In this document: positions 60,501-63,500 of the stretch, one piece after another
How the letters are laid out: every line of letters starts with the position of its first letter
How positions within the stretch are numbered: the first letter of the stretch is position 1
Assembly (NCBI RefSeq): GCF_965641715.1
Contig: NZ_OZ282454.1
Reading direction: 5' to 3' (one strand)
Origin: Escherichia coli
Lineage (GTDB): Bacteria > Pseudomonadota > Gammaproteobacteria > Enterobacterales > Enterobacteriaceae
Length of the DNA: 64,000 nucleotides
Made by a program: the position numbers

Positions 60501-63500
60501 CCGGGTTCACAGGAGGCAGCAACGAGCAGCTGTTTAAATTCGGGAGGATAATTAGGGCAGCCTTTTCGCCTGCCGGGAGTCACATTTTTCTGCATATCTG
60601 ACACTTTGGTTCCCACTACTTATTTGGTGGACACCACTTTGTCTAATTCGTCAGATTCTGACCAGACGGTTCAGGCTGTACGCTTACCTACAAAAATTAC
60701 TCTCCGAATTACCTCCTGTGTCAGCGTTATCCGTGTTCGAACTTGCCGAATGGTTGCCCGGGATCGTGGGAATGAAAGAGGACGACATTACTCTCTTCAG
60801 CAGACAACCAGAACAGCAAAAAACGGAACATGACACAAACAGAAGACTTCGTAGTGGCTTTTACTGGCGCTTTTATTTTGCTTTTACCGCCCCTAGGGAT
60901 GTCCGTTCGCCAGACTTTTTCAGCCGGATGTTCATTTTAGCAGGCGATCCTGACCGTCAGCGTGAACTAAGCGAACTTCTCTTTGGCGAGCTTGAAGAAA
61001 CAGGTTTCTCCTCGCGGACATGGTTTGAACACGTTATTGATAAACTCACCATGGAAATGCTCTCCCAGGCAACTCCCGCACAGTGCCTAGGATTACTCCG
61101 CTTTATATTTATTAATGGCACAAAGATCTCCAGGTACTATCGACAGCGGGATGGAATCATGGGGCTGGAATCCGCTGGGTTGACAGAACTGGCGGACAGG
61201 CTTTTTCAACTTACACTTAATGCCACTCATAGGGGGGGATCGACTGTTTTAGCCATGCCCAGCAAGATCGGCAAACGTTCAACTGGGCCATGACGTATCT
61301 CCGTCATCTGCTCTGGCAAAATGGTCTGGCCGGTACGCGACCAGTACCACCGAATGAAAGGGTGCTAGGTAATGATGATTTAAGACATTTGTGTCAACAG
61401 GCTGCTGCATGGCTGGAAAATCCAGATAACCAAGAAGCCATTCTGGCGAACGGCGAACTGTCTGATTTGGTGTATGCCTGGCGGGAAATCAGCACCACCG
61501 AATCTGTTGCGACGTGGCTAACCTCAGTAACTGACAAGGATGATGTTTTTCTTGAGGTCTTGCTGCGGCTCCGTTATGACGGTATCCGGACTAATATTGG
61601 CCGTTATCAGGGATTGAAACTAAATACCTTGGCTGAATTCTTTGGCGGAGAAGAGTATATCCTGAAGAGATTAGATAATATTGAAGCTAAAGGGCATCTG
61701 ACTGAACTGACCAGTCAAGTGAGGAAAGCTATCGAACTCGACTCTCCAGACATTCCCCGATAGATCACTACGTCTGCTCAGGAAAGAGCAACTGAGAAAA
61801 CTGACTAAGCTAATGCAGATTGTACACTTCGCCATACACTGTCTCAAAGGCCCATAACGGGCCTTATTCTTATAAAATGAACAGAATCAGGCGCTAAACG
61901 CTTTTTCTTTATCAAAAGGAACACCTGCATACGCCAGTTCGCTCAGCAGCTTGCGTTTCCATCCACCATGTTCATCAAGCTCGGTATAAAGTACGCCTGC
62001 GAGATCGGAAGGTATTTCGATGTCACCCTTCTTGAGTACCAGTACTTTCCCGCGACCAAGTTTCCCCGCGAAATATCCGAGTTCATACAAGACATTTTGA
62101 CGTGCACGCAGTCGCGTGCTTTCAGATGCCAAGGCATTCCCGCTATCGTCAGGCGTCATCAGCACGATGGCAAAGCTGACATCTCCTGACTCCGCTTCAA
62201 ACTTCTCGATAACCGTCCTTGAGCCGTCAGGGCGTTCAGAAAGTATGATCTCCTCAAGCCCTACACGAGAGATAAAACGGGCAACAGATTGAAGGGCATC
62301 ATTATCATGGCCATGAACAATAAAAACTTTTCGGGAAACCGGACGTAGCACTGCTGGCTCAGGAGCGAACTGATTTTCCACATACAACTGGTAATCACGG
62401 ACGAATGGGACAAGTAATGATGAGGTAAACTTGCGGACAGATTCAATAACCCTGCGGTCGTAGAAAAATGTATGCCAGAAATTAAATGAAAAATTGTTAT
62501 CGATCGCCATTTTCTGTATCAGCAGCAACTTCAAGCCCAAAATATCAGCTGGTTCTTCAGGCCATTGCAGCACAGCGGAACCAGCCATGCTGGATTCAGT
62601 ATCTCCACTCCTGGCCAGAAAGGCATCAAGCTCAATATTGCGGGTCAGGCGTTCATTAACTGCCTGCAAGTTATCTGAGTTCAATAGCCGGGCCAGTTGT
62701 TTAAGAGGTTGCTGATAGTTCTGAACGTCAGCGCGCTGAAGATCGAATACGCAATTTTTAAGTGACTGAAAGATATCAATCGCCATCCTGTCCGCTCTCC
62801 TGTCTTTGTTGTTCTGCACTGTCCAGAATCTGTTGGCGCAGATTTTCTTTCATGTGTTCGATTAATGGACTGACCATAGGATTAGTGGCATAACCAGAAG
62901 CGCGTTCGTCCACCATGGAGTAGGCTTCCTGAATTGCGTTCTCAATGCTGCTAGGATCGTTAGCATCAAAACGAACATCATAACTTCCGTTTAAGGCCTC
63001 CGTTGCTCTCTCAACCTCTTTTAGCTGTTTCTGCATTTTGTCTAAACCTGTGATTTTGACGCCCATAACAACCTCCGGACTAAATGAGATGTACCAGCCT
63101 GTATAGATAGCACGCCGGAAGAATGGGGTAGTGGATATCAGTCAAATTCTCCGTAATTTCATTAAGTTCCGGTTTTACCTTTTTCGGATCTTATTAGTGT
63201 AGAAGAACGATTGTTGCGGTGAGGGGATTATTGCTTAGGAAGCAAAATTCAAAACTGACTAAGCCAGAAATAGCAACAACAAGATAAGGAAATTTTCCCC
63301 CTCAGCCCCTGCATGCCGTGAGGGGGAGCAACTACCCAACTACAGTTTTCATTTTATGATACGTCTTCACTAGGTAATACCTGTGAACTGACAGAGTCTT
63401 TACGGAGTGTATGGCGGACCTAAATTTGATCCCTGAAAACTGCCAGCGCTGCGAGGACGAAGAAAGTATTACGGCTAAAGCCGTAATACCTCCCCATCCA

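Follow-up and report, generated by a model that had tools for sequence, protein, structure and literature searches.

A pifA-type gene remnant beside ISEc8 in Escherichia coli, probably a pseudogene disabled both by IS66-linked truncation and by loss of a single G

Within a 64,000-nucleotide stretch of Escherichia coli contig NZ_OZ282454.1 (the whole of which we refer to here as 'the window'), the region abutting the right end of an IS66-family element is most probably a pifA-type pseudogene that has been disabled twice over, by truncation at the IS66 boundary and by a frameshift resulting from loss of one G; we would put the probability of this reading at about 0.9. Taken together, a match to the plasmid record CP057372.1, the PifA profile and the placement of the KAP domain indicate that the region corresponds to codons 390-747 of such a gene, less one G. 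The pseudogene is of an ordinary kind: it belongs to a known defence-gene family, is inherited clonally and is found on many E. coli plasmids. Coordinates for the remnant and its surroundings are collected in Table 1.

Table 1. Features of the pifA-like remnant and its neighbourhood, in window coordinates
Feature	Position	Strand	Remarks
IS481-family transposase, N-terminal fragment, left ISEc8 flank	57812..58245	+	NCBIfam transpos_IS481 2e-26, positions 2-114 of 284
ISEc8 (IS66 family), complete, 2,442 bp	58246..60687	-	right end truncates the pifA-like gene
ISEc8 tnpC (DDE)	58283-59821	-	Pfam DDE_Tnp_IS66 (identical product)
ISEc8 tnpB	59871-60218	-	Pfam TnpB_IS66 (identical product)
ISEc8 tnpA	60215-60616	-	Pfam HTH_Tnp_1 (identical product)
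pifA-like KAP-family NTPase gene remnant	60688..61763	+	codons 390-747 of 747, minus one G; 1,076 nt (3')
Upstream mechanical ORF, 191 aa from GTG	60718..61293	+	the final 18 codons lie past the G tract and are read out of frame
G7 homopolymer	61232..61238	+	-1 frameshift relative to G8 of the intact allele
Downstream mechanical ORF, 157 aa	61290..61763	+	PifA-like residues about 591-747, original frame
Terminator-like hairpin, between pifA remnant and TIR-like gene	61847..61865	+	AAGGCCCATAACGGGCCTT then T-rich tail; consensus match only
TIR-like 'nucleotide-binding protein', 299 aa, intact	61887..62786 (mechanical ORF to 62819)	-	PF10137, PADLOC PDC-S35
YuaX-family protein, 96 aa, intact	62776..63066	-	upstream of and overlapping the TIR-like gene; PF27363 on identical products of L005-L019

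Megablast searches of E. coli genomes and PLSDB returned full-length matches, at 87-90% nucleotide identity, within a gene annotated as 'KAP family P-loop NTPase fold protein', and the RefSeq-annotated homologues in this identity range sit immediately 3' of a gene for 'transcriptional repressor PifC'. The intact relative is found on CP057372.1 (pRHB28-C15_2; locus L002 in our set), with L002 positions 5999-9313 aligning with window positions 60688-64000 at 99.76% nucleotide identity. This plasmid carries pifC together with an uninterrupted, 747-aa pifA-like ORF having eight Gs (G8) at the tract, and differs from the window, within the remnant, by three SNPs and the one extra G; it therefore provides an intact homologue for the translation obtained by fusing the two frames of the remnant.

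Its 747-aa protein matches the PADLOC PifA profile (PDLC02361) over positions 2-718 of 720 (876 bits), and the two window ORFs match that same profile colinearly, at positions 386-555 (1e-43) and 574-718 (7e-35), with the profile gap between them corresponding to the out-of-frame stretch that runs from the G tract to the stop codon of the upstream ORF. In the intact relative, the Pfam KAP_NTPase domain (PF07693, 1e-37) occupies residues 29-280, wholly upstream of the break, and a Pfam search with both window ORFs found no domain in either, leaving the copy without the KAP NTPase/Walker A region that marks a PifA. Rather than forming a single ORF of ~740 aa, the window copy begins only at codon 390 and carries a frameshift; nor does it hold the pif-operon position after pifC, a gene present at loci L001, L002, L004, L020 and L027 but without a match in the window. 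At the DNA level, only 14 PLSDB plasmids carry this allelic type, and among the E. coli RefSeq complete genomes the 87%-identical allele was the only one found (on 6 plasmids), the pifA lineage of the window being absent.

An earlier, sequence-only reading had described two ORFs that join into one on addition of a single G, an upstream frame that stays open into the IS66 end with no ribosome-binding site, and a split at the G7 tract; all of this holds. The ORFs lie in different frames, and one G added to the tract (...CACTCATA-GGGGGGG-ATCGAC..., within ...CACTCATAGGGGGGGATCGAC...) fuses them into a single frame ending at the stop at 61763. On translation, the leftward frame from the remnant is open into the IS, with no stop from 60601 onward, and two contig-end products (P0015 and P0017) run into IS66 sequence. 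Inspection of the sequence revealed no purine-rich Shine-Dalgarno motif ahead of GTG 60718 (upstream ...TTACCTCCTGT), ATG 60772 or ATG 61290, and a promoter scan found no sigma-70-like site on the + strand between 60400 and 62000. The window contains 11 G/C runs of seven or more, against about 5.7 expected, and the G7 run alone is unremarkable; its significance derives from homology, as the intact allele has G8 at the same site and the PifA profile is colinear across the shift.

We also considered that the two ORFs might be real, separate small genes, or might encode a working C-terminal fragment, for instance one that modulates PifA-type defence or acts in it as a decoy, but regard this as extremely improbable. 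GenBank records do list both ORFs as hypothetical proteins, the upstream one in CP055625.1 as a 173-aa product starting at ATG 60772, and loci L015-L019 carry the gene as ORFs of 381 and 348 aa, the codon that corresponds to 60718 having become an ATG. Saying this, separate ORFs of the kind seen in the window are confined to one clonal haplotype of identical DNA; the more distant pifA homologues are all single ORFs, of 741-748 aa; neither a promoter nor a ribosome-binding site accompanies the remnant ORFs; and the end of the upstream ORF is out-of-frame read-through, with Pfam blank for both.

The IS66-family element can be assigned to ISEc8 from the annotation of CP055625.1 ('IS66-like element ISEc8 family transposase') and a match to NCBIfam transpos_IS66 (4e-138). 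Its ends read GTAAGCGTACAG... and ...CTGTACGCTTAC, and it is bounded by inverted repeats that start GTAAGCG (GTAAGCGTACAGC... at 58246, and ...GCTGTACGCTTAC ending at 60687). Homology to the intact allele in CP057372.1 begins at 60688, the first base past the IS end, which bears out the earlier suggestion that the gene lost its 5' end at the IS66 boundary. Neither pifC nor the first 1,167 nt of the pifA-like gene has a match anywhere in the window, and both are also gone from complete plasmids sharing the junction (CP057088.1 and CP055625.1). At ≥99% identity, pifC and the 5' half are found in PLSDB only in CP057372.1. Relocation of the 5' half to another site was considered, and rejected on finding no match in the window or in the complete junction-carrying plasmids.

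IS66 elements create an 8-bp target duplication; none is present here, the 8-mers flanking ISEc8 being GAAAAAGT and CTACAAAA. The place expected for pifC and the 5' half of pifA is instead occupied by the IS481-family fragment, which is unrelated to pifA. In ten further assemblies that share the right junction, the left ISEc8 flank takes at least three forms, and locus L010 contains a second copy of ISEc8, with the left flank seen at L011 and L012. The missing duplication and the unrelated, variable left flank argue that the junction is not the product of a simple insertion, and point to an insertion followed either by deletion or by inter-IS recombination.

Eleven IS66-linked loci (L003 and L005-L014) share with the window an identical junction, G7, and three linked SNPs (two synonymous and one that would be L581Q). 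Loci L005-L014 represent ten different assemblies, L003 and L013 being one record (CP055625.1), and the assemblies with the G7 junction come from different projects, with complete hybrid plasmids and a metagenome among them. Exact copies of the 157-aa product occur on 199 contigs (with 396 blocks listed for it in the index), of the 173-aa product on 117, and of the intact protein on 45. Exact look-ups in a 15-billion-protein collection found neither the IS66-linked haplotype (Q581 allele) with G8 nor the full-length L002 allele with G7, but only the G9 full-length product and the products of a lineage carrying E382*.

The sequence-only reading had taken a read error to be as likely as slippage, a parity that does not survive these data. 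Such an error would mean that the true tract is G8, and that the 358 C-terminal codons form one frame, still truncated by IS66. Homopolymers are prone to sequencing and assembly error, and single low-coverage assemblies do show other tract lengths (G9 in L023, at 5.3x); but with an identical G7 in ten independent assemblies, both frameshifted products recovered exactly on so many contigs, and the G8 form of the haplotype missing from the protein collection, we give this explanation practically no credence, and consider it ruled out for practical purposes.

The tract is G8 in the intact-lineage loci (L002 and L015-L019) and is interrupted in diverged homologues (GGGAGGGG in L004, 89.6% identical; AAGAGGGT in L001, 87%), so that G8 appears to be a slippery run specific to this lineage. 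One might then suppose that the tract is a contingency (phase-variation) switch, turning the pifA-like gene reversibly on and off: near-identical alleles do exist with G7 (the IS66 lineage, and L021 without IS66), with G8, and with G9 (L023, where the extra G is the sole change in the gene), and an uninterrupted G run is absent from the more distant homologues. In the window, however, no gain of a G can bring function back, codons 1-389 having been lost along with pifC and the promoter, and slipped-strand switching, as proposed from the sequence alone, is irrelevant here. G7 is found in the window and in all 11 IS66-linked loci with no heterogeneity, L021 and L023 are single short contigs in which errors are possible, and one slip followed by inheritance accounts for most of the tract data; a switch is, on this evidence, very unlikely. 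The uniform junction, G7 and SNPs are those of one inherited haplotype, and not of ongoing switching.

Elsewhere among its near-identical relatives the gene has been hit in other ways. L021, a single Logan contig, combines G7 without IS66 with W411* and a 12-bp deletion, and has the ancestral alleles at the three SNPs; in L023, a single 5x metagenome contig, G9 is the only change in the pifA-like gene. In the E382*/V400M lineage (L015-L019), the split into the 381- and 348-aa ORFs coexists with G8, and the new ATG lies 18 codons downstream, at the codon equivalent to window 60718.

Counting the IS66-linked haplotype, near-identical copies have thus been disabled in at least 3-4 independent ways (IS66 with G7; W411* with the 12-bp deletion and G7; G9; and E382*). 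These independent hits make G8 look like a hot spot and the gene look dispensable or costly. More speculatively, all of this might be read jointly, with G8 as a recently arisen hot spot that repeatedly silences a costly abortive-infection gene, the allele being under selection for loss or remodelling on plasmids of farm and clinical E. coli, and the E382* lineage perhaps having gained a PifA that works in two pieces, the NTPase and the C-terminal half; we consider this combined scenario unlikely.

Returning to the doubly disabled pseudogene, we propose the following sequence of events. The ancestor would have been a pifC-pifA operon on an IncF-type plasmid, encoding a 747-aa, divergent PifA with an N-terminal KAP NTPase and a helical C-terminal half. 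ISEc8 would then have inserted into pifA, with its 5' side subsequently removed or replaced, either through IS-mediated deletion or through recombination between ISEc8 copies; events of this kind would explain both the missing 8-bp duplication and the three or more left flanks. The loss of a G was probably a replication slip, shifting the frame after codon 572, and could have come ahead of the ISEc8 insertion or have been a neutral change afterwards, the G7 of L021 without IS66 being compatible either with a slip before the IS arrived or with an independent one.

Since the remnant lacks the NTPase domain, the regulator pifC, a promoter and a ribosome-binding site, it most likely yields no functional product and is most likely inert. 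Read-through transcription from the IS may reach it, and a 173-191-aa fragment could in principle be translated from GTG 60718 or ATG 60772. The ancestral anti-phage function would therefore appear to have been lost in this plasmid lineage.

The remnant converges on a TIR-like operon, as had been noted from the sequence, the two lying on opposite strands with a terminator-like hairpin between them. The TIR-like protein contains a CAP12-type TIR domain (PF10137 CAP12-PCTIR_TIR, 3e-37, residues 164-282) and matches PDC-S35 (1e-64); both it and the YuaX-family protein are 100% identical, at the amino-acid level, to their CP057372.1 copies. An IS91-family element interrupts the TIR-like gene in some relatives. 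A literature search on PDC-S35 and yuaX returned nothing relevant.

The same reading had suggested that the gene may be a former partner of the TIR-like module, and of this the positional part stands while the partnership itself does not. The TIR-like/YuaX pair adjoins pifA in 8 of 11 distinct contexts, following pifA homologues at L002, L004, L015-L019, L020, L022 (pLVPK), L023, L026 and L027, and is missing in three (L001, where Ppl is found instead, L024 and L025). That pifA and the convergent pair make up one multi-gene defence system, in which loss of pifA orphans its partner, would fit with the position of the pair, which directly follows pifA homologues on many backbones, those of Klebsiella pLVPK, Enterobacter plasmids and F-type E. 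coli plasmids included, and with the similar counts and host distribution of the two genes in PLSDB (977 versus 919 records at ≥80% coverage; 632 versus 620 in Klebsiella). Set against this are the three pifA homologues that have no pair, the pair that stays intact without pifA (as in the window), the convergent orientation with its intervening hairpin, the listing of PifA and PDC-S35 as separate single-gene entries in PADLOC, and the classical attribution of T7 exclusion to pifA alone; moreover, between loci with PifA proteins of 37% identity the TIR-like protein keeps an identity of 88-100%, so the two do not co-diverge. We accordingly think a single system improbable. Comparison of the loci supports synteny, conserved in a slot of the IncF backbone, and does not support functional dependence.

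For comparison we took as the classical PifA the F-type plasmid protein annotated 'phage T7 exclusion protein', which is 37% identical in amino-acid sequence to the intact relative over residues 11-741, a level that marks the latter as a distinct allelic type; the N-terminal halves of the two types share 45% identity and the C-terminal halves 27%. Phage T7 and a few of its relatives are excluded by F PifA through abortive infection, a process dependent on phage gp1.2 and gp10 in which the membrane is depolarised (PMC8594841, PMC11990801, PMC13001434); among bacterial proteins, F PifA is the founding member of the KAP NTPase family (PMC13001434). From the 37% identity and the full-length profile match, we infer that the intact ancestor would have worked in the same general mode, by abortive infection against T7-like phages. 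The half retained in the window, being the more divergent between PifA types, may be what would be expected of a specificity region.

An AlphaFold model of the intact relative, of moderate confidence (pLDDT 70.9, pTM 0.46, from a 9-sequence alignment), has a mostly helical C-terminal half. A PDB search by sequence with the intact protein gave no match. A Foldseek search with the model ranked RdrA rings first among PDB structures (E 9e-6), with ORC/Cdc6 and NB-ARC ATPases next, at low TM-scores of 0.27-0.31.

In practical terms, the two annotated 'hypothetical proteins' derive from a single dead pifA-type defence gene, and belong marked as one pseudogene; defence-system finders would be right to leave PifA uncalled on this plasmid, where the TIR-like candidate system is still intact. 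The locus serves as an example of the erosion that abortive-infection genes on plasmids undergo through IS66 elements and homopolymer slips, and of a conserved IncF slot, with pifC on one side and the TIR-like/YuaX pair on the other, that hosts two very different PifA allelic types. Nothing in the remnant will be unexpected for specialists, its kind being already known.

Set beside known systems, the intact relative resembles F PifA in matching the profile end to end, in length class (747 versus 741 aa), in lying directly after pifC on IncF-type plasmids, and in having an N-terminal KAP NTPase with the Walker A motif GKWGSGKTS, whereas the window copy, retaining only codons 390-747 and frameshifted, is a pseudogene. 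Its low-TM structural resemblance to RdrA (RADAR) and to STAND/ORC-like ATPases is one of fold class and not of family membership. With a simple ISEc8 truncation, the junction shares a complete element, with tnpA, tnpB and tnpC, placed directly against the break point, but differs in having no target duplication, and a left flank that is unrelated to the gene and varies between carriers. Finally, as in contingency loci, one base has been lost from a G8 run that is seen as G7, G8 and G9 across lineages; unlike in such loci, G7 is here fixed and clonally inherited, within a gene already truncated, and no evidence of ongoing switching was found.

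Across four pifA loci that carry the TIR-like/YuaX pair (L002, the intact reference in CP057372.1; L004; L020; and L022, pLVPK), the genes flanking the 'slot' between pifC and this pair are conserved, at 72-90% identity for pifC, 88-100% for the TIR-like gene and 79-100% for YuaX, and the PifA alleles lying within it share only 37% identity. Judged from these sequence comparisons, the pattern looks like that of a defence gene which has been replaced allelically, or has diversified, at a fixed position in the backbone.

A further form of the pifA-like gene is seen in five loci of another lineage, also with G8 (L015-L019; 6001-8244 in L015, for example), where a ~99% allele is set apart from the intact gene by just two base changes, spaced 54 nt. 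The first, G1144T, produces the stop E382*, and the second, G1198A, converts GTG to ATG at the codon matching window position 60718, such that the outcome is a pair of neighbouring ORFs of 381 aa (NTPase) and 348 aa (C-terminal half). This two-ORF arrangement could represent a selected split gene, or simple decay.

Tract length also varies in copies known from single contigs. One of these (L021, Logan SRR29133848) has G7 in a pifA-like copy that lacks IS66 and also bears W411* and a 12-bp deletion, and another (L023, ENA ERZ17914509) has G9 in a copy otherwise identical to the intact one, with both tract lengths open to possible error because each comes from one short contig. Elsewhere in the window, unusually long homopolymer runs, C10 and C11 among them, are clustered at 41700-47100 (see table).

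Upstream of ISEc8, the IS66-family element abutting the pifA remnant, the segment with putative istA/istB fragments appears, from its translated ORFs, to be accumulated IS debris. As a separate observation, the TIR-like gene is itself broken by an IS91-family element, at the equivalent of window position 62532, in CP055625.1 (L003/L013) and in L010, and these loci also have the same IS66-pifA remnant.

Coordinates of homopolymer runs, IS sequences and the unit upstream of pifC
Feature	Location	Remarks
C11 run	window 43797-43807	
A9 run	window 43889-43897	
C10 run	window 44657-44666	
IS481-family element, ~1.2 kb, two more copies	window 40194-41400, 51219-52427	inverted orientation
Putative IS21-type fragments (istB; C-terminal portion of istA)	window 56412-57742	judged from ORF translations
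IS481-family transposase fragment	window 57812-58245	N-terminal 145 aa, cut by ISEc8; forms ISEc8 left flank
Two-gene unit upstream of pifC	L002 1514-3445; L015 2683-4614	

Finally, a two-gene unit that is missing from the 64,000-nt window sits upstream of pifC in both L002 and L015, and encodes a nucleotidyltransferase with a weak SMODS match together with an S_4TM protein; on the basis of these matches, we suggest the unit as a candidate CBASS-like, or related, defence pair.
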